A DNA stretch of 32,000 bases, taken from contig NC_006908.1 in the NCBI RefSeq assembly GCF_000008365.1, positions 30,001 through 62,000 on the forward strand, read 5' to 3'. The notes under the pieces are model-generated. The model made no database searches. It had not been told where the DNA came from and was given only the letters and a program-made list of their open reading frames with translations. The stretch is from Mycoplasma mobile 163K. Lineage in GTDB: Bacteria > Bacillota_I > Bacilli_A > Mycoplasmatales > Metamycoplasmataceae. The translations under genes were made by a program, and so were the position numbers. Positions 1 to 19,392 of the stretch are shown here, piece by piece (the first letter of the stretch is position 1; every line of letters begins with the position of its first letter).

Positions 1-901
1 GTATTTCTAATTCATTTTTAGCTAATCTATTTTCTTGAGTATTAAAATATCTTTTAAAAAAGTCTTGTGAATATTCCATTTGTCTTAAATTTATTGGATT
101 ATTAATTTTATTTATAAATTCTTCTCTATTCACATTTTCATCAATATCAAATTTAACTCTTGAAGTATTTATTCTTATTAAATAAGTATAATCAAAACCA
201 TTATTATCAGCTCTTTGTTTTTTCTCTAATAAGAAAAATCCATTTTCAGTTGTAAATGTTTCAGGATTAATATTATTATAAGTAGCATCAACAAAAAAAC
301 TACCAGCATAATCGTTTGGAACTAAATCTTTGGGGCTTAAATTAGCATTTTTAAGCCCTATTAATAAGCGGTAAGCTGAAGTTAATTTATCTTCACTATT
401 TATAGTACCTATCATTTCACTTGTTGGTATACTTGTAAATCAGTTAGAATTTCTACTTACATATGAATCATTTGAATTTAAATAAGTTAGACCTCTTAAT
501 CTATCTTGAATTGTTTCTTTTGTATAGCGAAGATCTATTCGGGAAACATTATTTCTACTAATTTCTTTTATTAATTCTATATGTTCTACAGCATTTCTTG
601 GAATACTTAAATCTTTATTTAAAAGTGGTGAAACTAAAATTCTTTCAAGAATTTCATTATTAGCAAAATCTCCATATGCATAACCACTAGCATATTTATT
701 ATTTGTAGGAGCTAAAATTTCTGCAGATGAATTTTCTATAAAATTAGCATTTACCTTATTTTTATTTAAAGTAAAAGTTTCTTCTTGAATGAATTTTTCT
801 TGTGATTTTTTAATTAAAATAACACCATTAAACAAAAAAGAACTTAATGCTAGAGTTCCACTAAAAAAGAAAATTGTTTTTAAAAATTTATTTACCTTCA
901 T
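1..901 (-). CDS. Tandem-family membrane-anchored surface protein, copy 1 (N-terminal ~300 aa only; the gene runs off the left edge)
   Basis: With table 4, track ORF 440..964 continues in frame through TGA at 440..442 down to base 1. ATG at 901..899 is preceded by GGAG (ggagttatATG). The N-terminus MKVNKFLKTIFFFSGTLALSSFLFNG is a hydrophobic signal/anchor. The track's upstream extension MLKTILDNF... (GTG at 964) covers the promoter and is not used. Confidence 0.75.
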
Positions 902-929
902 ATAACTCCATTTTGTTTGCAATATAAAA

Positions 930-938
930 ATTATATCA
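930..938 (-). promoter_or_regulatory. Extended -10 box (TGATATAAT on the minus strand) upstream of copy 1
   Basis: Minus strand reads tttTGaTATAATttttatattgcaaacaaaatGGAGttatATG. The element recurs identically upstream of every copy. No convincing -35 at 17 bp spacing. Confidence 0.45.
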
Positions 939-1004
939 AAATTATCTAATATGGTTTTCAACACTAATTTAAAGCTATTTCGCTAGTGCTTAATTCAAAA
1001 AATT

Positions 1005-3335
1005 TTATTTTTTACTTTTTTTTGACTTAATGAATTTTCATAAACTAAAAGAAGTAATTGCAACTACTAAAAAGCTAGCACTAATAGAACCTATAATTAC
1101 AGGTAAATTATTGTTAATAAGAACATCAAATCCTAAAACAAGTCCTAAATCTTGATTTAAAGTAAAATCTTTATTTGTAATTTCATTATTTACAACATTA
1201 GTATTAAATTCATTTACTAAATTTCATTGAATTCTAATTTTTGCACTACCATTAGCTTTATTTGCTTCATAAATTTCTAAAAAATTTATTTTTGATAAGT
1301 ATTCTAAATCTGAAATTATTAAACCTTTTAAAGCCAATTCTTTTTTAAATTCTTCGATTGATTTATTATTTCTACTAAATATTTCATTTTCAGGGGTAAT
1401 TTTATTATTAATTTCCATTTTCATTTTTGAACTATCAAAATTTTGGAATCCTTTTATTTCAAAAGAGTTGAAAAATTCAAAACCTTTTTCTATTAATTGC
1501 AATATTGTTCGATTAAAATTAATTTTAATATTTGCACTTCCGTTTAAAATATCACTATTTGAAATTTCAATACTATCAATAGTTTTTTCGATTTCTGGAT
1601 TTTCAAAATTTAATCCTGTAAATCTCAAATCTTTATTAAGATACATTCCATCAATAGCAAAAAAATTATTATTTGCATTAACTCATTTTGGATAGGATGA
1701 ATTATTATTAATATTAACAGCTTTAAAAGAATTGAAAGGTGTTAAAAATTCATGAGAATAAGTTCTTATTTGCCTATCAACTTCTGAAAGAGAAAATTCC
1801 ACATTTTCAAAATTAATTTTAATATTTGCTCTTCCGGTAATAAAATCACTTTTACTTATCTCAATTGATTTAATTTGTGTAGTCATAAAATCATTAACAT
1901 TATTTAAAATAATTCCATTAGCATCAAATTGAGCTCTTGTATATATTCCATCTACAGAAAAAATATTATTATTAAAACTTAAATTATTTTCTACTCAATT
2001 ATTAAAATTATTATCTTCTAATTTTCTAAAGAAATAATTCATTGGAATTCTAATAATTGTTTTTCTAAAATTCTCAACAACATTTCCATTAGGAAGAGTT
2101 AGATTTTTTGGTCCTTTTTCTACAAATAAATCTTTATAATTAATATTAACAAATCCTAAATTTGGATTTTGTCCTCCCTTAATCATATAAATATCACTTA
2201 ATATTTTATGAATTCTCTCTCCTAAAATTTCTTCAATTTCTAAAGGAGTATGAATCACTACTCCACTATTAAATGGTCTTGTGTTTAATTTTTGATTAAT
2301 ATATGTATCATCATATTCAACATCAATAAAAAATCTATCTTCTATTTTTAAATTCACATCATTTTTCACAAAAAGATCTAATTTAGGAATACTTAAATTT
2401 CCTAATTCATTTTTAATACTTAATTTTTCTAAAAGTATTTCTAATTCATTTTTAGCTAATCTATTTTCTTGAGTATTAAAATATCTTTTAAAAAAGTCTT
2501 GTGAATATTCCATTTGTCTTAAATTTATTGGATTATTAATTTTATTTATAAATTCTTCTCTATTCACATTTTCATCAATATCAAATTTAACTCTTGAAGT
2601 ATTTATTCTTATTAAATAAGTATAATCAAAACCATTATTATCAGCTCTTTGTTTTTTCTCTAATAAGAAAAATCCATTTTCGGTTGTAAATGTTTCAGGA
2701 TTAGTATTGTTATAAGTTGCTTCAACAAAAAAACTACCAGCATAATCATTTGGAGCTAAATCTTTGGGGCTTAAATTAGCATTTTTAAGTCCTACTAATA
2801 AGCGATAAGCTGAAGATTGTTTGCCATGAGAATTTATACTATCTATCATTTCATTTGTTGGTATACTTGTAAATCAGTTAGAATTTCTACTTATATATGA
2901 ATCGTTTGAATTTAAATAAGTTAAACCTATTAATCTATCTTGAATTGTTTCTTTTGTATAACGAAGATCTATTCGGGAAACATTATTTCTACTAATTTCT
3001 TTTATTAATTCTATATGTTCTACAGCATTTCTTGGAATACTTAAATCTTTATTTAAAAGTGGTGAAACTAAAATTCTTTCAAGAATTTCATTATCAGAAA
3101 AATCTCCATATGCATAACCACTAGCATATTTATTATTTGTAGGAGCTAAAATTTCTGCAGATGAATTTTCTATAAAATTAGCATTTACCTTATTTTTATT
3201 TAAAGTAAAAGTTTCTTCTTGAATGAATTTTTCTTGTGATTTTTTAATTAAAATAACACCATTAAACAAAAAAGAACTTAATGCTAGAGTTCCACTAAAA
3301 AAGAAAATTGTTTTTAAAAGTTTATTTACCTTCAT
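1005..3335 (-). CDS. Tandem-family membrane-anchored surface protein, copy 2 (776 aa)
   Basis: Table-4 fusion of track ORFs 2874..3398, 1995..2849, 1683..1886 and 1224..1646. Gaps of 24, 108 and 36 nt are all in frame and each junction is a TGA. In-frame 1005..1223 is added, ending in TAA at 1005..1007. ATG at 3335 follows GGAG. N-terminal hydrophobic anchor; C-terminal TM LPVIIGSISASFLVVAITSFSLW followed by KFIKSKKSKK. Confidence 0.85.
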
Positions 3336-3363
3336 ATAACTCCATTTTGTTTGCAATATAAAA

Positions 3364-3372
3364 ATTATATCA
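3364..3372 (-). promoter_or_regulatory. Extended -10 box upstream of copy 2
   Basis: Identical TGATATAAT element at the same offset from the ATG as in the other units. Confidence 0.45.
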
Positions 3373-3438
3373 AAATTATCTAATATGGTTTTCAACACTA
3401 ATTTAAAGCTATTTCGCTAGTGCTTAATTCAAAAAATT

Positions 3439-5766
3439 TTATTTTTTACTTTTTTTTGACTTAATGAATTTTCGTAAACTAAAAGAAACAATAGCAAATG
3501 CTAAAAATGCGCCACTAATAGAACCTACAATAATTGCTAAATTATTATTAGTAGGAACATCAAATCCTAAAACAAGTCCTAAATCTTGATTTAAGATAAA
3601 ATCTTTATTTGTAATTTCATTATTTACTACATTAGTATTAAATTCATTTACTAAATTTCATTGAATTCTAATTTTTGCACTACCATTAGTTTTATTTGCT
3701 TCATAAATTTCTAAAAAATTTATTTTTGATAAGTATTCTAAATCTGAAATTATTAAACCTTTTAAAGCCAATTCTTTTTTAAATTCTTCGATTGATTTAT
3801 TATTTCTACTAAATATTTCATTTTCAGGGGTAATTTTATTATTAATTTCCATTTTCATTTTTGAACTATCAAAATTTTGGAATCCTTTTATTTCAAAAGA
3901 GTTGAAAAATTCAAAACCTTTTTCTATTAATTGCAATATTATTCGATTAAAATTAATTTTAATATTTGCACTTCCGTTTAAAATATCACTATTTGAAATT
4001 TCAATACTATCAATAGTTTTTTCGATTTCTGGATTTTCAAAATTTAATCCTGTAAATCTCAAATCTTTATTAAGATACATTCCATCAATAGCAAAAAAAT
4101 TATTATTTGCATTAACTCATTTTGGATAGGATGAATTATTATTAATATTAACAGCTTTAAAAGAATTTAAAGGTGTTAAAAATTCATGAGAATAAATTCT
4201 TATTTGCCTATCAACTTCTGAAAGAGAAAATTCAACATTTTCAAAATTAATTTTAATATTTGCTCTTCCAGTAATAAAATCACTTTTACTTATCTTAATT
4301 GATTTAATTTGTGTAGTCATAAAATCATTAACATTATTTAAAATAATTCCATTAGCATCAAATTGAGCTCTTGTATATATTCCATCTACAGAAAAAATAT
4401 TATTATTAAAACTTAAATTATTTTCTACTCAATTATTAAAATTATTATCTTCTAATTTTCTAAAGAAATAATTCATTGGAATTCTAATAATTGTTTTTCT
4501 AAAATTCTCAATAACATTTCCATTAGGAAGAGTTAGATTTTTTGGTACTTTTTCTACAAATAAATCTTTATAATTAATATTAACAAATCCTAAATTTGGA
4601 TTTTGTCCTCCTTTAATCATATAAATATCACTTAATATTTTATGAATTCTCTCTCCTAAAATTTCTTCAATTTCTAAAGGAGTATGAATCACTACTCCAC
4701 TATTAAATGGTCTTGTGTTTAATCTTTGATTAATATATGTATCATCATATTCAACATCAATAAAAAATCTATCTTCTATTTTTAAATTCACATCATTTTT
4801 CACAAAAAGATCTAATTTAGGAATACTTAAATTTCCTAATTCATTTTTAATACTTAATTTTTCTAAAAGTATTTCTAATTCATTTTTAGCTAATCTATTT
4901 TCTTGAGTATTAAAATATCTTTTAAAAAAGTCTTGTGAATATTCCATTTGTCTTAAATTTATTGGATTATTAATTTTATTTATAAATTCTTCTCTATTCA
5001 CATTTTCATCAATATCAAATTTAACTCTTGAAGTATTTATTCTTATTAAATAAGTATAATCAAAACCATTATTATCAGCTCTTTGTTTTTTCTCTAATAA
5101 GAAAAATCCATTTTCAGTTGTAAATGTTTCAGGATTAGTATTGTTATAAGTTGCTTCAACAAAAAAACTACCAGCATAATCATTTGGAACTAAATCTTTC
5201 GGACTTAAATTAGCATTTTTCAGTCCTACTAATAAGCGGTAAGCTGAAAATTGTTTTTGATATTGTAAAATTGAATCTAATCTTTCTTGAGTAGGTATAG
5301 ACGTAAATCAATCACTATACATAGTTGTATAACTAAAATGATTATCAATACCTAAAGTACCCAATCTATCTTGAATTGTTTCTTTTGTATAACGAAGATC
5401 TATTCGGGAAACATTATTTCTACTAATTTCTTTTATTAATTCTATATGTTCTACAGCATTTCTTGGAATACTTAAATCTTTATTTAAAAGTGGTGAAACT
5501 AAAATTCTTTCAAGAATTTCATTATTAGCAAAATCTCCATATGCATAACCACTAGCATATTTATTATTTGTAGGAGCTAAAATTTCTGCAGATGAATTTT
5601 CTATAAAATTAGCATTTACCTTATTTTTATTTAAAGTAAAAGTTTCTTCTTGAATGAATTTTTCTTGTGATTTTTTAATTAAAATAACACCATTAAACAA
5701 AAAAGAACTTAATGCTAGAGTTCCACTAAAAAAGAAAATTGTTTTTAAAAATTTATTTACCTTCAT
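3439..5766 (-). CDS. Tandem-family membrane-anchored surface protein, copy 3 (775 aa)
   Basis: Table-4 fusion of 5308..5829, 4429..5001 (with 306 in-frame nt upstream lacking a Met), 4117..4320, 3658..4080 and 3439..3657. TAA at 3439..3441. ATG at 5766. The C-terminal anchor is a variant: LAIIVGSISGAFLAFAIVSFSLRKFIKSKKSKK. Confidence 0.85.
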
Positions 5767-5794
5767 ATAACTCCATTTTGTTTGCAATATAAAA

Positions 5795-5803
5795 ATTATA
5801 TCA
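5795..5803 (-). promoter_or_regulatory. Extended -10 box upstream of copy 3
   Basis: Identical TGATATAAT element at the same offset. Confidence 0.45.
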
Positions 5804-5869
5804 AAATTATCTAATATGGTTTTCAACACTAATTTAAAGCTATTTCGCTAGTGCTTAATTCAAAAAATT

Positions 5870-8233
5870 TTATTTTTTACTTTTTTTTGACTTAATGAAT
5901 TTTCATAAACTAAAAGAAGTAATTGCAACTACTAAAAAGCTAGCACTAATAGAACCTATAATTACAGGTAAATTATTGTTAATAAGAACATCAAATCCTA
6001 AAACAAGTCCTAAATCTTGATTTAAGATAAAATCTTTATTTGTAATTTCATTATTTACTACATTAGTATTAAATTCATTTACTAAATTTCATTGAATTCT
6101 AATTTTTGCACTACCATTAGCTTTATTTGCTTCATAAATTTCTAAAAAATTTATTTTTGATAAGTATTCTAAATCTGAAATTATTAAACCTTTTAAAGCC
6201 AATTCTTTTTTAAATTCTTCGATTGATTTATTATTTCTACTAAATATTTCATTTTCAGGGGTAATTTTATTATTAATTTCCATTTTCATTTTTGAACTAT
6301 CAAAATTTTGGAATCCTTTTATTTCAAAAGAGTTGAAAAATTCAAAATCTTTTTCTATTAATTGCAATATTATTCGATTAAAATTAATTTTAATATTTGC
6401 ACTTCCGTTTAAAATATCACTATTTGAAATTTCAATACTATCAATAGTTTTTTCGATTTCTGGATTTTCAAAATTTAATCCTGTAAATCTCAAATCTTTA
6501 TTAAGATACATTCCATCAATAGCAAAAAAATTATTATTTGCATTAACTCATTTTGGATAGGATGAATTATTATTAATATTAACAGCTTTAAAAGAATTGA
6601 AAGGTGTTAAAAATTCATGAGAATAAGTTCTTATTTGCCTATCAACTTCTGAAAGAGAAAATTCCACATTTTCAAAATTAATTTTAATATTTGCTCTTCC
6701 GGTAATAAAATCACTTTTACTTATCTCAATTGATTTAATTTGTGTAGTCATAAAATCATTAACATTATTTAAAATAATTCCATTAGCATCAAATTGAGCT
6801 CTTGTATATATTCCATCTACAGAAAAAATATTATTATTAAAACTTAAATTATTTTCTACTCAATTATTAAAATTATTATCTTCTAATTTTCTAAAGAAAT
6901 AATTCATTGGAATTCTAATAATTGTTTTTCTAAAATTCTCAACAACATTTCCATTAGGAAGAGTTAGATTTTTTGGTACTTTTTCTACAAATAAATCTTT
7001 ATAATTAATATTAACAAATCCTAAATTTGGATTTTGTCCTCCCTTAATCATATAAATATCACTTAATATTTTATGAATTCTCTCTCCTAAAATTTTTTCA
7101 ATTTCTAAAGGAGTATGAATCACTACTCCACTATTAAATGGTCTTGTGTTTAATTTTTGATTAATATATGTATCATCATATTCAACATCAATAAAAAATC
7201 TATCTTCTATTTTTAAATTCACATCATTTTTCACAAAAAGATCTAATTTAGGAATACTTAAATTTCCTAATTCATTTTTAATACTTAATTTTTCTAAAAG
7301 TATTTCTAATTCATTTTTAGCTAATCTATTTTCTTGAGTATTAAAATATCTTTTAAAAAAGTCTTGTGAATATTCCATTTGTCTTAAATTTATTGGATTA
7401 TTAATTTTATTTATAAATTCTTCTCTATTCACATTTTCATCAATATCAAATTTAACTCTTGAAGTATTTATTCTTATTAAATAAGTATAATCAAAACCAT
7501 TATTATCAGCTCTTTGTTTTTTCTCTAATAAGAAAAATCCATTTTCGGTTGTAAATGTTTCAGGATTAGTATTGTTATAAGTTGCTTCAACAAAAAAACT
7601 ACCAGTATAATCATTTGGAGCTAAATCTTTGGGGCTTAAATTAGCATTTTTAAGTCCTACTAATAAGCGATAAGCTGAAGATTGTTTGTCAGATTGTAAA
7701 ATTAAATCTAATCTTTCTTGAGTTGGTATAGATGTAAATCAATCACTATACATAGTTGTATAGTTAAACTGATTATCGATACTTAAAGCGTTTAATCTAT
7801 CTTGAATTGTTTCTTTTGTATAACGAATATTTATTTGAGAAACATTATTTCTACTAATTTCTTTTATTAATTCTATATGTTCTAAAGCATTTCTTGGAAT
7901 ACTTAAATCTTTATTTAAAAGTGGTGAAACTAAAATTCTTTCAAGAATTTCATTATCGGAAAATTCACCATATGCATAATCACTAGCATATTTATTATTT
8001 GTAGGAGCTACTATATGCTCTGCAATACTAATAAAACTATTTATATTTATTCTATCTTGATTATTTATAGAAGTATTATTAACGCTTCTTCTTACTCTTG
8101 CATTTGTATTATTTAAATTTTCAGGATTTCTTGTAATGTAATTGCTATTAACGGCAATGTTAGCAAACGAAAAAGAACTTATCGCTATAACTCCAACTAA
8201 AAAAATTATTTTCAAAATTTTATTTACTTTCAC
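5870..8233 (-). CDS. Tandem-family membrane-anchored surface protein, copy 4 (787 aa; divergent N-terminal module; GTG start)
   Basis: Table-4 fusion of 7739..8233, 6860..7432 (plus 306 in-frame nt), 6548..6751, 6089..6511 and 5870..6088. TAA at 5870..5872. The start codon is GTG (plus-strand cac at 8231..8233) behind the same GGAG. The first ~75 aa are unrelated to copies 1-3; homology resumes at APTNNKYAS. Confidence 0.8.
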
Positions 8234-8262
8234 ATAACTCCATTTTGTTTGTACTATAAAAA

Positions 8263-8271
8263 ATTATATCA
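8263..8271 (-). promoter_or_regulatory. Extended -10 box upstream of copy 4
   Basis: Same attatatca (plus strand) element. The region between the -10 box and the RBS differs slightly from the other units (A6 versus A5 run). Confidence 0.4.
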
Positions 8272-8376
8272 AAATTAGCTAATATGATTTTAAACATTAT
8301 TCTAACATTTTGCAAAATTAGCTTTTAAACTTATTGTTATATAAATTTGTTTTATCATAAAGATAATGTTTGAATG

Positions 8377-8382
8377 TATAAT
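8377..8382 (+). promoter_or_regulatory. Candidate -10 box (TATAAT, preceded by TG) for the small-ORF/protease operon
   Basis: Plus strand reads gaaTGTATAATttt, about 100 nt upstream of the ATG at 8480. A palindrome AGAAATAaaaaTATTTCT at 8405..8422 lies between this box and the RBS. A/T-rich context makes chance matches common. Confidence 0.3.
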
Positions 8383-8479
8383 TTTTGTGAATAGAGATAG
8401 TTAAAGAAATAAAAATATTTCTATTTCAATCTAATGAATTGCATTTTTTAAATAAAATTAAGAAGACATGAGGACAAAA

Positions 8480-8736
8480 TGGAAAATAAGAAAAATGAAA
8501 AAAATTTCGAGTGATTTAAAAATAATTTTGAAAGTTTAAAAAAAGCATATTCAAAAAAATATTTTTTAATAGAAGATGAAAAAATTTTAGCTAATTTTGA
8601 CGATTTGAAAGAAGCTTCTTATTTTCTTTCGAAAGAAGAAAATAAAGATAAAGATATTTCTATTCAAAGTGTTGAAGATTTAAATTTGAAAAATCAAAAT
8701 TTCTTTTCTAATATCGGAAGAAAATATGCCAAATAG
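8480..8736 (+). pseudogene. Small ORF (~85 codons if repaired) interrupted by a 1-nt frameshift in an A-run at 8519..8522
   Basis: ATG at 8480 has a good RBS (GAGGAcaaaATG) and reads MENKKNEKNFEWFK, then hits TAA at 8537. The adjacent frame is open from 8521 to TAG 8734..8736 (NNFESLKKAYSKKYFLIEDEKILANFDDLKEASYFLSKEENKDKD...GRKYAK) but contains no Met. One extra A would join the two parts. The 3' end overlaps the next gene's ATG by 11 nt. Confidence 0.45.
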
Positions 8737-9361
8737 AATTTTTCAAAAAATCCATGAAAATAAAATTATTATTAAAGTAATATTAGTTAATAATATAGAC
8801 ATTTTAAAGTTTTGGAAAAACAATTCTCATTTAACTGAAAAAGTAAATGATTTTGTAAAAGGAAAAATTTTGCAGCGATATGGAAAGTTAGTAGACATTT
8901 CTCAAGAAGAATTTTTTAAGATTCTTAATGAAGACATTCCTTTATGAAGTAAATGATTAGAGTTTCTTAAAAGTATTGAAAAATATCAAAAAGAAATATT
9001 CGCTTTAATTGATACCGGAGCTACAAGTTCAGCAATTTCTCAAGAAATTGCAAATGAGTTAGGTTTAATTTCAATAGGAAAATCATCAGTTCAAACAGCA
9101 TCAAATAGACTTATTACTTCCAAATATCTTGTGTCGTTATCCTTTTTAACAGAAAGCACTTTACTTTTACCTTCTATAGAAAAAAACTTTCAAGAAAAAT
9201 CCTTTTATACAAATAAATTAGTACCTTTTGAGCAGATTATAGAAGTAACAAGTCTAGAAAATTTAAGACAATCACAAAATATTGATATGTTAATAGGTAT
9301 GGATATATTGAAAAACACTCATTTTACTATTTTTAGTGACAATGCTATGATTTCTGTCTAA
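8726..9361 (+). CDS. Retropepsin-like (clan AA) aspartic protease domain protein, 211 aa
   Basis: Track ORFs 8726..8947 and 9131..9361 are in the same frame and are joined through two TGA codons (PLWSKWLEF). The product contains the catalytic-type motif ALIDTGATSSAIS and, ~100 aa later, MLIGMDILK. This is the DTG plus (I/L)LGxDxL pairing typical of bacterial/archaeal retropepsin-like proteases. Stop is TAA at 9359..9361. Confidence 0.7.
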
Positions 9362-9616: not shown

Positions 9617-12600
9617 TTTCAAGAATACATAAGAATGATACTACACCAAAACTGTTTGAAAAAGTGGAGTTGTTTGTCTAATGTTTAAGAATACATAAGA
9701 ATGATACTACACCAAAACATTTATCTTGCAATGCTTGGAGTAAAATTAGTTTAAGAATACGTAAGAATGAAACTACACCAAAACATTTATCTTGCAATGC
9801 TTGGAGTAAAATTAGTTTAAGAATACATAAGAATGAAACTACACCAAAACATATAAAAAATTTTATTTCCGAAAGTGAATGTTTAAGAATACATAAGAAT
9901 GATACTACACCAAAACTGAATCTCTTCTTCGTTTAATGTATCACGTGTTTAAGAATACATAAGAATGATACTACACCAAAACATGTTTTAGAATATGATA
10001 TTAATTTTAAAAGTTTAAGAATACATAAGAATGATACTACACCAAAACTATTAAGTGTAGATAAAAAATTATCTTTAAGTTTAAGAATACATAAGAATGA
10101 TACTACACCAAAACAATTACTACATAATGGAAAATCAAATCAAAGTTTAAGAATACATAAGAATGATACTACACCAAAACATATAAAAAATTTTATTTCC
10201 GAAAGTGAATGTTTAAGAATACATAAGAATGATACTACACCAAAACTGTAGGTTATACAGTTGCTTTAAATACTTAGTTTAAGAATACATAAGAATGATA
10301 CTACACCAAAACCAATGCAGCACTATTTAGAAAATGATTTAAGTTTAAGAATACATAAGAATGATACTACACCAAAACCAGACCAGCCTTATTATAAAAG
10401 TGAAATTTGTTTAAGAATACATAAGAATGATACTACACCAAAACTTTAATTTTGCGCTATCTTTAATTTTTTTAGTTTAAGAATACATAAGAATGATACT
10501 ACACCAAAACAAAAGAAGAATGAGATTTTTTACTAAATGAGTTTAAGAATACATAAGAATGATACTACACCAAAATCATATATCTCCTTTTATTGAGAGT
10601 TGTTTTGTTTAAGAATACATAAGAATGATACTACACCAAAACCTGCAGGACAAATAACTTTAAGAAATACAGTTTAAGAATACATAAGAATGATACTACA
10701 CCAAAACTTTAAGAAACATAGAAAATAATCAATATGAGTTTAAGAATACATAAGAATGATACTACACCAAAACTACAAAGACCAGAACTAATAGGAGCAT
10801 TTTGTTTAAGAATACATAAGAATGATACTACACCAAAACTGACGAAACTCATTCATATCAATACCTTTTGTTTAAGAATACATAAGAATGATACTACACC
10901 AAAACGCATAACTTAATTTGTATTTATAAGGTCGTGTTTAAGAATACATAAGAATGATACTACACCAAAACAGTGGAGGTTTTAGACAATGAAGTAGATA
11001 AGTTTAAGAATACATAAGAATGATACTACACCAAAACGATTAGTAGATAACGTAATTAAAGTAGTAAGTTTAAGAATACATAAGAATGATACTACACCAA
11101 AACGACCTTAATGTGCTAACAAATGGACAAATTGTTTAAGAATACATAAGAATGATACTACACCAAAACACATTAAACAAATCTAAATTTGCATTTAAAG
11201 TTTAAGAATACATAAGAATGATACTACACCAAAACCGAATTAAATGCAGAAGTTATTGCAATTAAGTTTAAGAATACATAAGAATGATACTACACCAAAA
11301 CGAGTTTCTGACTTTGAGACTATAACAGCGAGTTTAAGAATACATAAGAATGATACTACACCAAAACTGAAACAAGTCCAGTCGATAAAGGAAATGAGTT
11401 TAAGAATACATAAGAATGATACTACACCAAAACCTTCACCATGATAATATTTTGCTAATTCTAGTTTAAGAATACATAAGAATGATACTACACCAAAACT
11501 CATTGTATAATCTTTTTTTCAATTTGTATGTTTAAGAATACATAAGAATGATACTACACCAAAACCAGATCAACCTTATTATAAAAGTGAAATTTGTTTA
11601 AGAATACATAAGAATGATACTACACCAAAACTAGAATAGGTTAAACCCAGTCTGCTTAATAGTTTAAGAATACATAAGAATGATACTACACCAAAACCCC
11701 ACAATTTATTACAAGAAATAATAAACAGTTTAAGAATACATAAGAATGATACTACACCAAAACATATATTATTATACTATCAAAATAATACATGTTTAAG
11801 AATACATAAGAATGATACTACACCAAAACAATATTAGAGCAGTAAAATTAAGTATTTATGTTTAAGAATACATAAGAATGATACTACACCAAAACAGTAT
11901 TAACTCCTGTAATTCTAATTAAATGGTTTAAGAATACATAAGAATGATACTACACCAAAACAAGAGCAATTGATTTAAGAATTTTCCAACCGTTTAAGAA
12001 TACATAAGAATGATACTACACCAAAACATGCACACACTGACACCATAATATAAAAATGTTTAAGAATACATAAGAATGATACTACACCAAAACCTTCACC
12101 GTGATAATAAGACGTTAATTCGAGTTTAAGAATACATAAGAATGATACTACACCAAAACAATATCTTCTCTTGTTGTATATCATTCGTCGTTTAAGAATA
12201 CATAAGAATGATACTACACCAAAACATATTATAGTTAGTAGTTTCTTCTTTATTCGTTTAAGAATACATAAGAATGATACTACACCAAAACAGAGTGATT
12301 ATACGCTCACTTCAAAATTAAGTTTAAGAATACATAAGAATGATACTACACCAAAACGAATGATAATAACTATATCTGCTTTTTGCTGTTTAAGAATACA
12401 TAAGAATGATACTACACCAAAACTTATATGCGCCTGCTTTTCCATGGAAAAAGGTTTAAGAATACATAAGAATGATACTACACCAAAACATGGTATCAGG
12501 TGATAGTAAAATAGTAGAAGTTTAAGAATACATAAGAATGATACTACACCAAAACTACTGGATTTGAATTAAATTTTGATGACGGGTTTAAGAATACATA

Positions 12601-13743
12601 AGAATGATACTACACCAAAACCAATGCAACACTATTTGGAAAATGATTTAAGTTTAAGAATACATAAGAATGATACTACACCAAAACGGTAATGATTCAG
12701 GCTCTATTTGATAGATTGTTTAAGAATACATAAGAATGATACTACACCAAAACAGACTCAAGCACCAATAGATTCAGTATTAAGTTTAAGAATACATAAG
12801 AATGATACTACACCAAAACTAAAAGAAAGAGAGTTATACTCTCTTTCTTGTTTAAGAATACATAAGAATGATACTACACCAAAACGCTGACTGTTCTTTG
12901 TTGTTTGTTTCATTTGTTTAAGAATACATAAGAATGATACTACACCAAAACATTCTGCCCAACTAATAAATCAAAAAAATAGTTTAAGAATACATAAGAA
13001 TGATACTACACCAAAACTGTCTGTATCTAAATAATAAACATTTTTTCGTTTAAGAATACATAAGAATGATACTACACCAAAACGCACTGTCTGCAAGCTT
13101 TGCTTATGTAGCTGTTTAAGAATACATAAGAATGATACTACACCAAAACTCACGAAGTTTTATGAAAAGAAATTGAAAAGTTTAAGAATACATAAGAATG
13201 ATACTACACCAAAACCTAATTTATCAAATGAAATTGTTAATTTATGTTTAAGAATACATAAGAATGATACTACACCAAAACCCTACGCTTGCAACTTTTA
13301 AATTCGTCATAGTTTAAGAATACATAAGAATGATACTACACCAAAACATAGGTCAGATTTTTTCTAATGCACCCTTTGTTTAAGAATACATAAGAATGAT
13401 ACTACACCAAAACTGATTATATAAGAGAGCACCAAAATGCTTAGTTTAAGAATACATAAGAATGATACTACACCAAAACATATATTATTTTAATGGTAAT
13501 TTAATACATGTTTAAGAATACATAAGAATGATACTACACCAAAACACAAAATTGTAAATAATAAATTATTACTTGGTTTAAGAATACATAAGAATGATAC
13601 TACACCAAAACTGAAACATCATTTATATTATCTGAACAAGAGTTTAAGAATACATAAGAATGATACTACACCAAAACTCTAAACTTATCAGCAAACCACA
13701 TTTATCAGTTTAAGAATACATAAGAATGATACTACACCAAAAC
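9617..13743 (-). CRISPR. Type II-A CRISPR array, 63 repeats of 36 bp and 62 spacers
   Basis: Plus-strand repeat is GTTTAAGAATACATAAGAATGATACTACACCAAAAC. On the transcribed strand it is GTTTTGGTGTAGTATCATTCTTATGTATTCTTAAAC. Period is 66 bp throughout except for one 29-nt spacer at 10643..10671. Degenerate repeats cluster at the low-coordinate end: 9617..9652 starts tttc instead of gttt, 9749..9784 has 2 SNPs, 9815..9850 has 1 SNP, and 10541..10576 ends in T. This marks 9617 as the trailer end and 13743 as the leader end next to csn2. Confidence 0.99.
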
Positions 13744-13761
13744 CTCAAATTTCAAAAAATT
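13744..13761 (-). promoter_or_regulatory. CRISPR leader remnant (18 nt between the csn2 stop and the first repeat) ending in ATTTGAG
   Basis: Minus strand reads TAG(csn2 stop)-AATTTTTTGAAATTTGAG-GTTTTGGTGTAG(repeat 1). From memory, ATTTGAG abutting the first repeat is the conserved leader-end motif of one group of type II-A loci. Confidence 0.5.
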
Positions 13762-14445
13762 CTAAATTTTTTCCAAAAATTTATTTATCAAAAATGAATC
13801 AAAGCTTTCTTCACCTTTTAAATAATTATTGATTTTTTCAACCGTTATTAAAGTTTTAGTTCCTGATTCTAAATAATTTATCAATTTTTCTTTGTCAAAA
13901 ATTTCAACAATTTCTTTTTTATTTGCAAAAACAAGTTGCTCAATATTTTCAAAAGATAAATTGTATGCAAGTTTATCAATTAAATAAATAATATTTAATT
14001 TATTAAAAATGAATTCACTAAAATTTTTTAGTTTTATTCCATAGATTAAAATACTAATTGTTTCGTTAGAATATTTATCAATTATTTTTAAAATATTTAA
14101 AATATTTATTTCATTAATTAGTAAATCTTTATCGATTTCTAAAAATGATTTGGTATTTTTTTCTAAATCTAAATTTGTAGAAACAAATTCAAACCCTAAT
14201 TTTTGATTTATATCATTTGACATTTCATTAATTTTTTCATGCGAAATGAGATTTAGAAAATTAATACTATATTCGTCCATAAAAAAATTATTAAAAAAGC
14301 TTTTAGATTTAAAATTAAGAATTTCAGAAACTTTTGAAAAAGGATTAATAATTAAAAAATCATTTATATTTTCTAAATTTAATAAAAATTCAAAATAATT
14401 ATTAGTATAAATAATTTTATTTTCTGCAAAATTAATTTTCATCAT
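13762..14445 (-). CDS. csn2: Csn2 (type II-A signature protein), 227 aa
   Basis: Position directly after cas2 and before the array; size ~220 aa; N-terminus MMKINFAENKIIYTN resembles canonical short Csn2 proteins. Start overlaps cas2 by 14 nt. Stop is TAG at 13762..13764. Assignment rests mainly on context and size. Confidence 0.8.
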   Translation of the reverse strand: MMKINFAENKIIYTNNYFEFLLNLENINDFLIINPFSKVSEILNFKSKSFFNNFFMDEYSINFLNLISHEKINEMSNDINQKLGFEFVSTNLDLEKNTKSFLEIDKDLLINEINILNILKIIDKYSNETISILIYGIKLKNFSEFIFNKLNIIYLIDKLAYNLSFENIEQLVFANKKEIVEIFDKEKLINYLESGTKTLITVEKINNYLKGEESFDSFLINKFLEKI

Positions 14446-14773
14446 GATTAATTTTTATAAATCTTTCGTTAGAATTTATACTTTCATTTATTTTTCTATT
14501 TCCTCTTAAAATTTTCATATCTAAAAACTCTCTATCTGTAATTTTTAAAATTCTAACATGGCCATTAGAAGGCAATTTTTTTTCTACTAATTTTACAAAA
14601 GAATCAGCTTTGGAATTAGTATTAGCAACTCTATAATAAACAGAATATTGCATCATTATAAAACCTAAACTTTGAATATACCGATGGAATTTATTATACT
14701 CTTTTAATTCATTTTCTTCTTTCATATTAAAATCATACATCAAAATTAATCTCACAATTCTACTCATTCTCAA
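14432..14773 (-). CDS. cas2: Cas2
   Basis: The sequence (M)RMSRIVRLILMYDFNMKEENELKEYNKFHRYIQSLGFIMMQYSVYYRV matches the type II Cas2 pattern (compare S. pyogenes MRMILMFDMP...KFRKFLLSEGFIMHQFSVY). The track start at 14773 is TTG. The first ATG is at 14767 and may be the real start. Stop is TAA at 14432..14434. Confidence 0.9.
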   Translation of the reverse strand: MRMSRIVRLILMYDFNMKEENELKEYNKFHRYIQSLGFIMMQYSVYYRVANTNSKADSFVKLVEKKLPSNGHVRILKITDREFLDMKILRGNRKINESINSNERFIKINHDEN

Positions 14774-15648
14774 CTTCTTTTATTTACTAAATTATCTGCT
14801 ATTTGATCAAATGTATCATTTACATAAAAATACTTTCCTTTATAGATTACTTTTTTATTTAAAACATTTATTAATTCATCTTTTATTTTTACATCAAAAA
14901 ATGTTTCATCTTTATGTAAATATGCAATTTCATCTACTAGAGGTCTAAAAATTTCAATCAAATCACTTGCAAGGGCAAAGAAATTAGAAAAAGATTTATG
15001 AAATATACTAAATCTAGGATCTAAACCTTTTTTAATAATTGATTGGATTGCAGAAGATCTTAAAATAGAATAACCATAATTTAAAATTGCATTAACAATT
15101 TCAAATTTATCAAATTTTAATTTTGTTGCTGAATTATTTCTTATAAATTCTTTTGAATATGTCATATTTCAATAGACTTTTGCTGCATGACCTTCTCGAT
15201 TTGAAATGTCAAACAAATTCACATTATTAATTAAATCATCAAAATATTCAATTCCAAATTCAGAGTTATTAAATAATTTATTTTTAATTAATAAATTCTT
15301 TTGATTATGAATTTTATTTTTAATAATATCTTTTCATAAAATTGCTTTATATTCTTTAGTTCATTTTACTTGTTCTGCTACAACTTTTAAAGAATTGTGA
15401 TTTCCTTCAATTGGAATTAAATAAGAATTAGGCTCATTTTTTTCATTCATAAAAATAATATTGACATTATTTTTAGCTAAAAATGTTAAAAGTCTTATTG
15501 AAATTGTTGAATATTGATTATTAAATAAAATAGTATCTATATCTCTAATGTTTAAAAGAATTTTTTCATTTTTTCTTTTTATATACAAATTATTTAAATA
15601 TAAGTGAACATATTCATCTGTATTAATTTCTACAATTTTTCAACCCAT
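14746..15648 (-). CDS. cas1: Cas1 (300 aa under table 4)
   Basis: ATG at 15648 (MGWKIVEINTDEYVHLYLNNLYIKRKNEKILL). Track ORFs 15361..15588 and 14770..15165 are in frame and are bridged by 65 stop-free codons that include NREGHAAKVYW. Downstream motifs are NAILNYGYSILRS and ALASDLIEIFRPLVD. The apparent stop at 14770..14772 is TGA, so the ORF continues (WEWVELWD) to TAA at 14746..14748. Confidence 0.9.
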
Positions 15649-15651
15649 AAA

Positions 15652-18600
15652 TTATTTTTTAAATATTTCTCCCATATAAGTTAAATTAACTTTTTTCCAA
15701 TTTGGAAAATACTTTTTGACAGGTTTCTGAATTTGTTTTTGATCTTTTATTTTTTTTCCTAAAATGTATTTTATTTCCAATTTTTGAGGTTTTTCATCTC
15801 TTCCAACAATATAAAACAATTCTTTTTCTTCATTTTCAAACAAATCTCCTTTATTAATTTTTAAAATAGGTTCTTCATTTATAATTTGCAATTTTTCTTT
15901 TTGAGTTTTTAATTTTTCATAATTTATTTTTATTTCATCCTTTTCAAATTTTGAGTTTCTTGCATCAATTGAGATGAAACAATATTGATCTTTTTGATTT
16001 TTATACACTCAAATTTGAACTCAATATAAAGTATTGTGAAACGAAAAATTTTGTCTTTGATCAATTTTTAAAAAATTGCTTTGAGAGAAAATTATTTCAT
16101 CAGTTTCCTTTTCTTCACTAGAAAATTTAATGTATCTAATTTTTCTGATAATTTTGAAATCATTATCAAGAATAGGAACCCATTCATTAAAGGAAATTTT
16201 TCCTTCTTGAAGTTTTTTATTTACAAAATATTTGAAGTAATTTTTTTCATTTAGATTTTTATTTTTAATTTCAATTTTCACTTCATTTCAAATGATTTTA
16301 AGAGTTTCATACAAGTTTTTATCATGATTAAAAATATGTAATTTAGTTAGTTCATTCTCCTTTAATTTGTCTTCGTCAAAAAACTCTTCAATTTTTTTAA
16401 TTTTATCTGTTCTATTGTCTAATAAATTCAACTTTTCAACTTTTTTTATCGTATTTTTCCCCTTATCATATTTACCTGAGTAAAGAGTTTCATTAAATAA
16501 TTGAGTATTTTTCTTTGTAATAACCATTCTACTAAATCTCATCTGATTTAGCTTTTCATTTAATTCATCCAAAGCATTAATTAATAGAAAATTGTCAAAA
16601 CTAGCTTTTTCTTTAAATTTAATATTATTTTTTTCAAGATCATCTAATTCTCTTGTTTCTTTTCTATAATTAACATTTAATCTTTCAATTCTTTTAAAAC
16701 TTCTAAAATATTGGCTAATTATTGTTATAAAATAAGCATCTTCAGCATGATGTCCGTTAAAACTTCTATCCTTAATAAGAACATCATCTTTTACATCATT
16801 TTTTCCTTCTTCTCTTATTAAGAAGTCATTACTATTAATACTTTTAAATCCTTCAGGTCTTTTTCATTCTCTTTCGGTTTCTTTATTATTTTTTATACCA
16901 ACAAAAGCAATTTGATTTCTCAAATTAGATGTTTGCTTTCCATTTACAGAAACCACAGAATATTTATATTTTGAATTTGAAAAAGTTAAGTGATTTACAA
17001 GAGCATTTGTAATGTAGCTTGTATCACTTAAATTTCTATTAATAAAATCACTATTATCAAATTCATCTAAATTATCAATTGTATATAATTTTATAAATTT
17101 ACCTTTATCATTAAAAGCCTTGCCATTAGCATTTCTTAAATATCAATTTCCTCAATTTTCTTTTGCTTCTTTTAATTTTTCTATTCCATATATTTTTTCA
17201 ATAAATTGCTTTGCGCTTAAATCATTTGATTTTTTAGCATTATCTAATTTATTAACAATAACAAGATTTGAAAAAGAATCATCAAAAGATATACTTCTTG
17301 GAACAATATGATCAATATCATAATTTCAAGGTTTGTTTATAACATCATTAGCTTCAATTTTTCTTAACGAATATGCATCATATCCTTGTTGTTGCCTTAA
17401 TAATCACAATTTTTTTAACAAAGTTGTATTTTCATTTGGTAAATCATAAACTTTTTTTAGTTCTTCGTATTTTTCTTTTCTATATTTATTTATTCCTTCA
17501 ATTTTTTTTCTTTCGTGTTTATTATTTGAACTTCTTGTTACTTCAACAACAATTTTTTCAATTTCTAAATTATTTTTTTCGCTATACTTAAAAATTTCTT
17601 TTAGTAGATTCATTGTTTGTCTTAAAGATCTTTTTACAGTAGGAGAAGCAATAAGATCTTCTACTCAAGTTTTTTCAAATAAATTTGAATGAGAAAAATT
17701 ATTTTTCTGGTTTTGTAATGCTTTTTCTTCATATGAAATTGTTGAATAATTTTTAGATCCCTCAGAAATTAAATTTGGTATGAATTTATAATAAGCTCCA
17801 AAACTTAAAGAAGAAGTTCCACTAAATTCTCTTAATTTAGCAATTTCACTATATATTTCTGAAGATTTAACATCTTTTTTCAAATTAGAAAATTCAAAAT
17901 ACCCTTCTAAAATTCTTATTCTATCTTGTATTGTTGAAAATTTATTCAGGATATTTGAAATAGCATCAAAAATATGCAATACGTTGTTATTTTGATTTAT
18001 TTCATAACTTCCTTTTTCATTAGGAACAAATAATTTTTCAGATTGTTGTTTATAAAAACTCATTAATTTACTTAAATCATTTTCATTAGAAATTAAATAA
18101 TTTTCAAAATTTATTAAATGCTTTTTAAAAATAGTTGTCAAGCTGTGGTAAGCATTAATAATAGGTAAATTAATTTTATTATCATCTTTATTGTAAGCAA
18201 TTTCTGATAAGTTTTCAAATTTAATATTTTCTTCTTTAAGTATTTTTTCAACTGCGGATTTTGAATCTTTATTTAGAAATCTAGACAGTAAAATTTTTCT
18301 TTTTAATCTTTCAGAAATATATTCATTTTTATGTTTTCAGTCTGTTAGTTTATTTGTTATATCAAAAACTTTAGCAGAAAAAGAATTTTTAGGCGCTCGA
18401 TATAATTTTTTATCATAAGAACATTTTCCTATTTTAGATTCCCATAAGGTTTTAAAAATTTTAGTATAAATTTTTTGTCCCTTTTCATTAATTATTAGTT
18501 CCGGATTACCATTTTCATTAGCATACAAACCGTATTTTGAAAAACTTTTTTCATTACCTGGTCCTTCTGAATAATTTCTAATTCTTGAAAAAAAACTTTT

Positions 18601-19332
18601 TTCTTCCATAGCAAATTTTTCATAATTCATAAAATCAATATTTTGCTTTTCAAAAACTTGTTTTATTTCTTTAAGATAATCTTGATGACCAAATTTTAAA
18701 TTAATAGTACTTCTAATTTTTCCTGAAATTTTATAAAATTCAATAATTTTGTCTATTGGAAATTCTGCATTTTTTATGCTTTCATTTTTGTCAAAAATCT
18801 CAATTTCATTCTTATTCATTTCTTTAGATTTTGTATCTTCTGGATTGTCAAAAAATGCTCCTCTTAAAGATAAATAAAAATATAGCAATACAATAAGTTC
18901 ACTTTTATCTAATTTATATTTTTCATTAATTGCAGCTTTTCTTAAATTGTGAAATCCAATTGGTAAATTTGTTACACTTTTATATTTTAATTCTAAATTT
19001 TTACTAAAAGGATTTATATATTTCTCAATAAAATTTCTTACAAGAATTTTAGGATTTTTATCAAATTCTAATTCAATAATATTGTTATCGATTAAATATT
19101 TAATAAAATCTCTTTTTCTTGTAAATAACCTTCTATTTCTTCGTCTTTGTCCACGTTTTTTTCTTCTTGTTTCATTTAATAACTTATCATCGCTATCATC
19201 CACTGTTTCGAATAACCTTACTCCATGTAAAATGATTGGAAACTTATTATCTTCTTTTTGTGAAATATCTGTGAGACATCAACCTACAGAAGCAATTCCT
19301 AAATCAAGCCCTAAAACAACTTTTTTATTCAA
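15652..19332 (-). CDS. cas9: Cas9, type II-A, 1226 aa
   Basis: Track ORFs 15652..16008, 16021..16281, 16288..16572, 17404..17613, 17665..18141 and 18337..19203 share one frame and are separated only by TGA. Motifs: RuvC-I NKKVVLGLDLGIASVGW; Arg-rich bridge helix RRKKRGQRRRNRRLFTRKRD; RuvC-II IVVEVTRS; HNH YDIDHIVPRS...NLVIVNKLDNAKKSN; RuvC-III NGHHAEDAYF. Start is TTG at 19332, with AAGGAG 6 nt upstream and no ATG before RuvC-I. Stop is TAA at 15652..15654. Confidence 0.95.
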
Positions 19333-19360
19333 TTTATTCTCCTTATTTTTGTAAAAGTAC

Positions 19361-19392
19361 AAAAAAAACTACTTATTTTGAAAATAAGTAGT
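19361..19392 (-). terminator. Rho-independent terminator of tracrRNA
   Basis: Arms CTACTTAT and ATAAGTAG can extend to 11 nt each. They are followed by eight T on the minus strand (plus-strand a8 at 19361..19368). Confidence 0.8.

Follow-up and report, generated by a model that had tools for sequence, protein, structure and literature searches.

Identification of the cassette

The stretch of DNA analysed here, referred to throughout as the window, comprises 32,000 nucleotides of Mycoplasma mobile 163K (NC_006908.1, positions 30,001 to 62,000 of the forward strand). It contains two overlapping genes, the first for a small DUF5678-type protein and the second for a retropepsin-like aspartic protease of clan AA. 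The identity of this locus as a DUF5678-type and retropepsin-like cassette is close to certain. The M. mobile locus is a diverged copy, adapted to genetic code 4, of a widespread and strictly paired two-gene cassette in which a small, usually acidic protein of about 80 aa from the DUF5678 family is encoded first, with a single-domain protease, predicted to be cytoplasmic, immediately downstream. Searches of genomes and viral contigs show this cassette to be autonomous, horizontally mobile and carried by phages. Both domains have entries in Pfam, and the M. mobile genes are presumably in public records; what is new is that a protease of the retropepsin-like type forms part of a strict and mobile two-gene cassette, of which the window copy is a diverged member.

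We propose that the small protein may act as a stoichiometric binding partner that restrains the protease homodimer, whether by blocking the cleft, by blocking dimerisation or by gating the access of substrates. The pair would then be a mobile accessory conflict module resembling toxin-antitoxin (TA) or abortive-infection systems, in which loss or displacement of the partner could lead to proteolysis of an essential target and to arrest of the cell or of an infecting phage. Taken as a whole (the identity of the locus, the homodimer, control by the partner and the conflict module together), this reading is given slightly less than an even chance of being correct.

The retropepsin-like protease

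The product of the downstream gene had been assigned to the clan AA retropepsin-like proteases on the strength of two motifs, ALIDTGATSS and MLIGMDILK, which are present as quoted at aa 93-102 and aa 188-196, and profile and structure comparisons agree with the assignment. The protein scored above the cut-offs of the clan AA Pfam families PF13975 (33.0 bits, cut-off 28.2) and PF13650 (30.3 bits, cut-off 24.3). Of 56 proteases surveyed, 55 have D[TS]GA, and no sequence of the 123-sequence alignment departs from the catalytic Asp; D193 of the second signature is nearly invariant within its closest subfamily. An AlphaFold2 (AF2) model built on 123 sequences gave a predicted local distance difference test (pLDDT) score of 88-95 for the core, aa 85-140 and 169-211. 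The top Foldseek matches in the Protein Data Bank (PDB) were all retropepsins with a probability of 1.00, namely FIV protease (E 8.7e-5, TM 0.63 on the target), Rickettsia APRc, DDI1 and Pseudomonas RloA. The family profile likewise found DDI1, its best sequence-profile match in the PDB, and retroviral proteases. No hydrophobic segment, signal peptide or membrane segment was found in the protease, which is therefore predicted to be cytoplasmic; the same is predicted for the small protein. Single-domain clan AA enzymes work as homodimers, and from its single-domain architecture we infer that the M. mobile protease does so as well.

Judged from its sequence, the M. mobile protease is an extreme outlier of the family. 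Its best non-self match among 1.84 billion representative proteins had an E-value of 2e-9, and no homologue in that set covered aa 1-60; its relatives are 28-39% identical to it, over the C-terminal half only. Against a hidden Markov model (HMM) of the closest subfamily, whose members have a long internal loop and end in a short C-terminus (…H-I/F-T…I-I-x-S-F), it scored 105.5 bits. A lineage-specific insertion separates the N-terminal strand from the catalytic loop, and all subfamily relatives are gapped by approximately 40-60 residues at this site (subfamily alignment A8). Model confidence in the insertion is low to moderate, with helices predicted at aa 24-33, 60-67 and 73-87. The N-terminal strand itself matched the subfamily HMM weakly, at 5.0 bits, a score equalled by 10 of 1977 scored shuffles, and homology of aa 1-22 found no support from the main-family HMM.

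The small DUF5678-type protein

The original prediction had likened the small open reading frame (ORF) to DUF5678-type proteins. This likeness was recovered through an extended partner family, the Pfam cut-off having been missed. The small ORF contains WFKNNFESLKKAYSKKYFLIEDEKILANFDDLKEA, and its top Pfam match was DUF5678 (PF18929) at 15.0 bits, below the cut-off of 23.2 (E 0.022). A partner HMM was built from 64 small proteins encoded upstream of related proteases, and against it the small ORF scored 39.4 bits (E 2.5e-14), compared to 10.0 for the best of 1000 shuffles. The alignment to the partner family runs over the full length and retains four of the five nearly invariant positions (L20, I31, A46 and Q62). 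Among 55 protease-linked partners, 31 match DUF5678 and none matches any other Pfam family; where partner entries are named in the source records, they are called DUF5678 domain-containing.

The partner encoded on locus L102 shares 32% identity with the small ORF over 77 aa, and the similarity includes the C-terminal 'SIQ…FFS' segment. Since L102 belongs to the closest protease subfamily, both window genes fall into matching subfamilies. L102 is a metagenomic contig of 23.5% GC, and its partner gene (L102:59-298, upstream of protease P0008) has an in-frame TGA exactly at the nearly invariant Gly column (xxVxGxYD). This suggests that L102 may be read with genetic code 25, the code of Gracilibacteria or Absconditabacteria in which TGA stands for Gly, rather than with code 4.

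An AF2 model of the small protein (pLDDT 76) has an alpha-beta-beta-alpha-beta-alpha topology. A fold search of the PDB and BFVD returned nothing with an E-value below 0.09. The top PDB match, AcrIIC5, extended over 24 columns with an E-value of 1.9 and was dismissed as noise. A search of PHROGs with both window proteins gave nothing significant.

Sequence conservation in the partner family is good along the whole protein, and a C-terminal segment, LGTFLxQKCxPGxxxYTQTxHSRVxF, is nearly invariant. Such conservation would also suit a precursor and its maturase, in which the small protein is a dedicated substrate whose cleavage, perhaps at the C-terminal tail, would release or activate a product, and the protease is the processing enzyme. 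Retropepsins classically process polyprotein partners encoded alongside them, and the partner lacks a DNA-binding domain and does not outpace the protease in evolution, all of which fits a substrate. However, no cleavage site could be identified in the partner, and its fold matches nothing of known activity. The C-terminal tail, moreover, varies strongly between subfamilies and has been lost in the window copy, where the protease core is kept. We regard a precursor as unlikely, and a partner that restrains the protease remains the preferred reading.

Pairing and distribution of the cassette

The two genes are conserved as neighbours in other genomes. The first three distant homologues to be examined each had a gene for 82-100 aa directly upstream. 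Loci from 80 reference genomes made up the genome set; of their 78 protease ORFs, 72 had a partner gene directly upstream, and three of the six exceptions are at contig edges. On viral contigs, an independent set, 74 of 79 protease ORFs had an HMM-confirmed partner upstream; as the partner HMM was derived from the genome loci, it is independently tested by the viral set and the window only. Conversely, a search with the partner profile returned three proteins, all three with a retropepsin-like gene immediately downstream. Pairing also holds in the subfamily closest to the window (L001 and L102). The intergenic gaps are mostly between -38 and +21 nt, with many overlaps of 1 nt and 4 nt, and the pairwise divergences of partner and protease are correlated (Spearman 0.41). 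Pairing of partner and protease is thus near-obligate.

For the size of the family, lower bounds of 3,308 protease clusters and 2,018 partner clusters were obtained. The cassette was found in more than 15 phyla, in taxa including Lachnospiraceae, Bacteroidales, Chloroflexota, Nitrospirales, Acidobacteriota, Omnitrophota and Pseudomonadota, as well as several phyla of the Candidate Phyla Radiation (CPR), an archaeon and a metagenome-assembled genome (MAG) of Mycoplasmatota. The distribution is very patchy, with 298 confirmed loci among 185,579 species genomes using one search pattern, and as far as these searches reach, M. mobile is alone among sequenced mycoplasmas in having it. A SEC-C-type zinc motif (CPCGSGKKYKxCC, PF02810) was observed at the C-terminus of many proteases of the family, such as P0003, P0004 and P0089 and those of L095-L101; 30 of the 123 best-scoring protease clusters have it. 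The M. mobile protease subfamily does not have this motif, and in PADLOC the SEC-C tail cross-matches E2 and E1-E2 models.

Genomic neighbourhoods and mobility

The 115 immediate neighbours at 72 genome loci match 106 different Pfam families. In an all-against-all clustering of these neighbours no family occurred in more than four loci, and no conserved third gene was found next to the cassette. Neighbours in genomes include SocA/Panacea antitoxins, AAA_21, integrases, ORF6N, a HaeII restriction enzyme and proteins matching several PADLOC models; those of L001 include an EcoRI-type methylase and GmrSD/HNH. Many others are housekeeping genes. In L098 (2487-3322) the cassette has a His_biosynth (hisF-like) gene on one side and a PRA-CH (hisI-like) gene on the other, and looks like an insertion into a histidine-biosynthesis operon.

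On viral contigs, of which 81 carry the cassette, the commonest neighbours are integrases (at least six), repressors including CI-like ones (at least five), HicB-like antitoxins, endolysins or amidases, and a superinfection-exclusion gene. These are accessory slots of temperate phages, that is, moron positions. Leptospira LE1-like phages carry the cassette as well. In Leptospira phage LbrZ_5399 (KF114879.1) the ORF for the retropepsin-like protease (L094:3001-3471) is unannotated, and annotation in the record is limited to the 80-aa partner (2747-2989) and one short overlapping glimmer ORF.

At four loci (L028, L056, L059 and L070, from a Paceibacterota MAG and three Bacteroidales MAGs) a second two-gene unit was observed downstream of the cassette. 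It consists of a SocA/Panacea-domain protein of approximately 190-230 aa and a protein of approximately 155-160 aa, a TA-type pair, and suggests a four-gene island that has been transferred between phyla.

Comparison with known families and systems

A central part is played by retropepsin-like proteases in retroviruses and in eukaryotic DDI1. The likeness of the window protease to these enzymes lies in the fold and in the D-T-G-A and hydrophobic-Gly-x-D motifs, whereas the window protease is prokaryotic, stand-alone and predicted to be cytoplasmic, with no polyprotein, no UBL or UBA domains, and a small partner gene that is near-obligate.

The original prediction had linked DUF5678-type proteins to AF_0612-family proteases as gene neighbours; the pairing has proved real, and the family membership has not. 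The window protease scored 23.7 bits against the AF_0612 family (TIGR03698/COG5550), far from the cut-off of 57.35, and 25.0 bits against TIGR02281/COG3577, where the cut-off is 57.95, and it was rejected as a member of either. Of 123 typical family proteases, 34 match TIGR03698 at all, the best with an E-value of 9e-8. Since the window protease and its typical relatives fall short of these cut-offs, the DUF5678-linked proteases are a sister family without a dedicated curated model of their own. They belong to the same clan as the TIGR03698 and TIGR02281 families, and the window protease is similar in size. Of the function of these prokaryotic single-domain clan AA families 'little is known' (PMC2642776).

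Only a handful of bacterial retropepsin-like enzymes have a known role; they are bound to membranes, located in the periplasm or linked to the modification of ribosomes. APRc of Rickettsia conorii (PDB 5c9f), which is membrane-associated, and RloA/RloA2 of Pseudomonas (PDB 9g58 and 9g59) share the retropepsin fold with the window protease. The RloA enzymes are described as periplasmic or secreted proteases acting in stress tolerance (PMC12239564), and RimB is described as a retropepsin-like regulator of ribosome modification (PMC11957791). Unlike the window protease, APRc, RloA/RloA2 and RimB have no DUF5678 partner, and they have not been described as a mobile two-gene cassette.

These roles raise the alternative of ordinary regulated proteolysis, in which a housekeeping or stress protease and its adaptor would act as RloA or RimB do, with no part in conflict. 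In addition to the precedent of the characterised enzymes, the many cassettes found among housekeeping genes and the lack of plasmid copies in 72,556 plasmids would be consistent with it. It fits poorly, however, with the patchy spread of the cassette, with the lack of a conserved neighbourhood, with the moron positions in phages, and with a singleton copy in M. mobile. This alternative is considered decidedly unlikely, and we continue to favour a conflict module.

The cassette resembles a type II TA system in that a small upstream gene overlaps a larger enzyme gene, the unit is autonomous and patchily spread through unrelated neighbourhoods, it is occasionally clustered with other TA pairs, and it is carried by prophages. 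It differs from such systems in that the partner has no DNA-binding domain, no significant operator is present, and no copy was found in the plasmids searched. We know of no aspartic-protease toxin, and a 2009 survey of TA systems does not list the cassette. The gene B models of the PADLOC candidate system PDC-M08 match the retropepsin domain weakly (20-26 bits), a match at the level of the superfamily only, and PDC-M08 was rejected as an identification.

Evaluation of a proposed role in conflict

A role of the cassette in defence or addiction is plausible, and what makes it so is the variable genomic contexts and the moron positions in prophages, not the adjacency to CRISPR in M. mobile. Several observations weigh against it. 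The partners are mostly acidic (median isoelectric point 5.4), and no DNA-binding Pfam family was found in 55 of them. Antitoxins often evolve faster than their toxins, whereas the mean identities of partner (36.5%) and protease (39.2%) indicate similar rates; this lack of asymmetry does not separate the hypotheses. Searches of PLSDB with protease and partner queries found no copy in 72,556 plasmids, among which the host taxa are poorly represented; absence from plasmids is atypical for addiction modules. The neighbour frequencies given above are raw counts without a genomic background, which limits what they say of an enrichment near defence genes. None of the partners matches PDC-M08A or any other model of PADLOC-DB 2.0, and literature searches found no paper on DUF5678, on the protease family or on their pairing in the library searched. 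Finally, the small protein of M. mobile has neither the conserved Gly nor the C-terminal tail of the YTQTxHSRV type, and this copy may for that reason work differently or not at all.

A more far-reaching claim is that the cassette represents an unrecognised class of TA or abortive-infection system, with an aspartic-protease effector held inactive by a small acidic partner that does not bind DNA, spread as a phage moron and a selfish chromosomal insert from CPR bacteria to Mycoplasma, and that the M. mobile copy is functional in a small defence islet beside CRISPR-Cas. In this full form we find it rather unlikely.

At the level of the family the observation is solid and experimentally approachable: a large family in which a retropepsin-like enzyme, predicted to be cytoplasmic, is nearly always encoded with one small protein, and in which the two travel together among bacteria, one archaeon or more, and phages. 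Should the partner prove to be an inhibitor and the protease a growth-arresting effector, aspartic proteases would join the effectors of TA and abortive-infection systems, and the partner would be a natural protein inhibitor of a retropepsin. If instead the partner is a substrate, the cassette would be a minimal prokaryotic analogue of polyprotein processing.

Gene organisation and expression signals of the M. mobile copy

The window has a GC content of 24.4%, and its genes read through TGA. Calling of ORFs with translation table 11 split both genes of the cassette at TGA codons and was abandoned for table 4 (TGA = Trp). With table 4 the arrangement originally predicted, a small ORF that precedes the protease gene and overlaps it by 11 nt, was confirmed; the shared nucleotides are ATGCCAAATAG. 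TGA is read in frame as Trp once in the small ORF (aa 12) and twice in the protease (aa 74 and 77), and one of these codons falls on a conserved aromatic column of the family. The GC content of the genes is 18-24%, compared to 24% for the window. From the TGA-Trp codons, the host-like GC content and the lack of close relatives, the cassette would seem to have been acquired long ago in M. mobile. The coordinates of these and other features are given in Table 1.

Table 1. Features of the cassette and of its surroundings, in window coordinates.
Feature	Position	Strand	Remarks
Candidate -10 box TATAAT, TG directly before	8377..8382	+	Read from sequence; promoter role inferred
Palindrome AGAAATA-aaaa-TATTTCT	8405..8422	.	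Present; judged to be chance-level AT-rich sequence
Ribosome-binding site GAGGA	8470..8474	+	4 nt before the small ORF ATG at 8479; read from sequence
Small-protein gene	8479..8736	+	85 aa, table-4 ORF
Internal ribosome-binding site GGAAG, within small ORF	8716..8720	+	5 nt before the protease ATG at 8726
Retropepsin-like (clan AA) aspartic protease gene	8726..9361	+	211 aa, table-4 ORF
Lineage-specific, mostly helical insertion, approximately aa 21-85 (about 65 aa)	8786..8980	+	Between N-terminal strand and catalytic loop
Catalytic motif D96-T-G-A	9011..9022	+	Invariant in 123-sequence alignment
Second clan AA signature L-I-G-M-D, aa 189-193	9290..9304	+	G191 and M192 invariant in 123 sequences
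Type II CRISPR array (context only)	9617..13743	-	63 repeats of 36 nt, 62 spacers
Cas9-like, Cas1-like and Cas2-like ORFs and a fourth small ORF	13762-19362	-	Assigned by size, order and recognisable motifs

At the base composition of the window, an open frame of 211 codons has a probability of approximately 2e-7 of occurring by chance, and stop-to-stop ORFs reached at most 158 codons in 20 shuffled windows. This bears on the possibility that the M. mobile pair, as distinct from the family, is a decaying relic without a current function. Decay would account for both proteins being extreme outliers of their families (the protease with its 28-39% identity confined to the C-terminal half), for the unmatched protease insertion of about 65 aa with its low model confidence, and for a partner that lacks the conserved Gly and the tail and scores below the Pfam cut-off. 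On the other hand, both frames are intact in DNA of 24% GC, the catalytic and structural signatures, the ribosome-binding sequences and the coupling overlap have all been kept, and a TGA-Trp codon occupies a conserved aromatic position. A relic has a low probability in our judgement, and a diverged member of the cassette family is the preferred description of the locus.

The good ribosome-binding site predicted in front of the small ORF was located as described. The internal ribosome-binding site and the 11-nt overlap suggest that translation of the protease may be coupled to that of the small ORF. The candidate -10 box is the sole TATAAT in the intergenic region 8234-8478; it has no -35 match and so is not listed by a consensus promoter scan. 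Consensus scans of this kind gave no excess of promoters and no terminator, and Rfam and tRNA scans of the window found nothing.

The palindrome between the candidate promoter and the ribosome-binding site, which had been compared to the operator of an autoregulated TA pair, is present as predicted, as is the promoter candidate. As an operator it was rejected: 7-nt inverted repeats like it occur approximately 1.5 times per 245 nt across the window, and at least one was found in 68% of Markov-1 simulations of the intergenic region. With a palindrome at chance level, and with partners that are acidic and have no DNA-binding domain, the analogy to an autoregulated operator is without support.

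An antisense ORF of 159 codons (code 4) was observed at 8680-9159 on the minus strand, overlapping the protease gene. It is probably spurious, as homology backs the plus-strand frame.

CRISPR array and other surroundings

The cassette lies, as predicted, between a surface-protein array and the trailer end of a type II CRISPR array. The CRISPR repeat is GTTTTGGTGTAGTATCATTCTTATGTATTCTTAAAC (minus strand), and since the degenerate terminal repeat (9617-9652) faces the protease gene, the assignment of the trailer is correct. The last repeat is 256 nt from the protease gene, and the cassette is convergent with transcription of the array.

The link to defence that had been drawn from this location did not hold, because at its other loci the cassette does not recur beside cas genes. 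No cas family was found among the 25 commonest Pfam families of the 115 neighbours at 72 other loci, and the 25 commonest PADLOC neighbour families listed include a single 'Cas-associated DEDDh' match. The adjacency therefore looks like coincidence or, at most, co-location in a variable region.

An accessory role, in which the pair would work with the adjacent type II CRISPR-Cas locus, could draw on the short distance to the last repeat and on a precedent in archaea, a different small retropepsin-domain protein, 'Asp_prot', that has been counted among the accessories of Sulfolobales type III-D/VIII-1 CRISPR modules (PMC3973734). Asp_prot is similar in being a small retropepsin-domain protein near CRISPR-Cas, but it is a protein of approximately 100 aa belonging to archaeal type III systems and is encoded inside cas cassettes, whereas the window gene has a type II neighbour and lies beyond the trailer. 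Both neighbour surveys, and the position of the cassette at the trailer end, convergent with the array, argue against an accessory role, which is very improbable. The preferred reading is of a cassette that would have no functional tie to the adjacent array. The angle specific to Mycoplasma and to CRISPR is accordingly not upheld; for M. mobile itself, two otherwise 'hypothetical' genes become nameable, and their closeness to CRISPR should not be over-read.

Within the array, two pairs of spacers are exact duplicates (9718/9784 and 9850/10180) and two further pairs are near-duplicates with two mismatches each (10312/12621 and 10378/11565). This points to internal duplication or to repeated acquisition from related targets. 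The first repeat is approximately 18 nt away from the stop codon of the final cas-operon ORF (13762-14445, minus strand), so a conventional leader would hardly fit into the interval 13743-13762 unless it overlapped the end of the gene.

On the other side of the cassette, tandem genes for surface-protein paralogues of approximately 790 aa extend up to position 8233 on the minus strand. Three or more complete tandem paralogues (787-797 aa) are encoded within window positions 1-8233, together with a partial copy. The paralogues have an N-terminal signal-like segment and a C-terminal hydrophobic anchor and are nearly identical over long stretches, and the copy nearest the cassette (5870-8233) differs in its N-terminal 100 aa or so. 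Together these genes look like a variable surface protein family.

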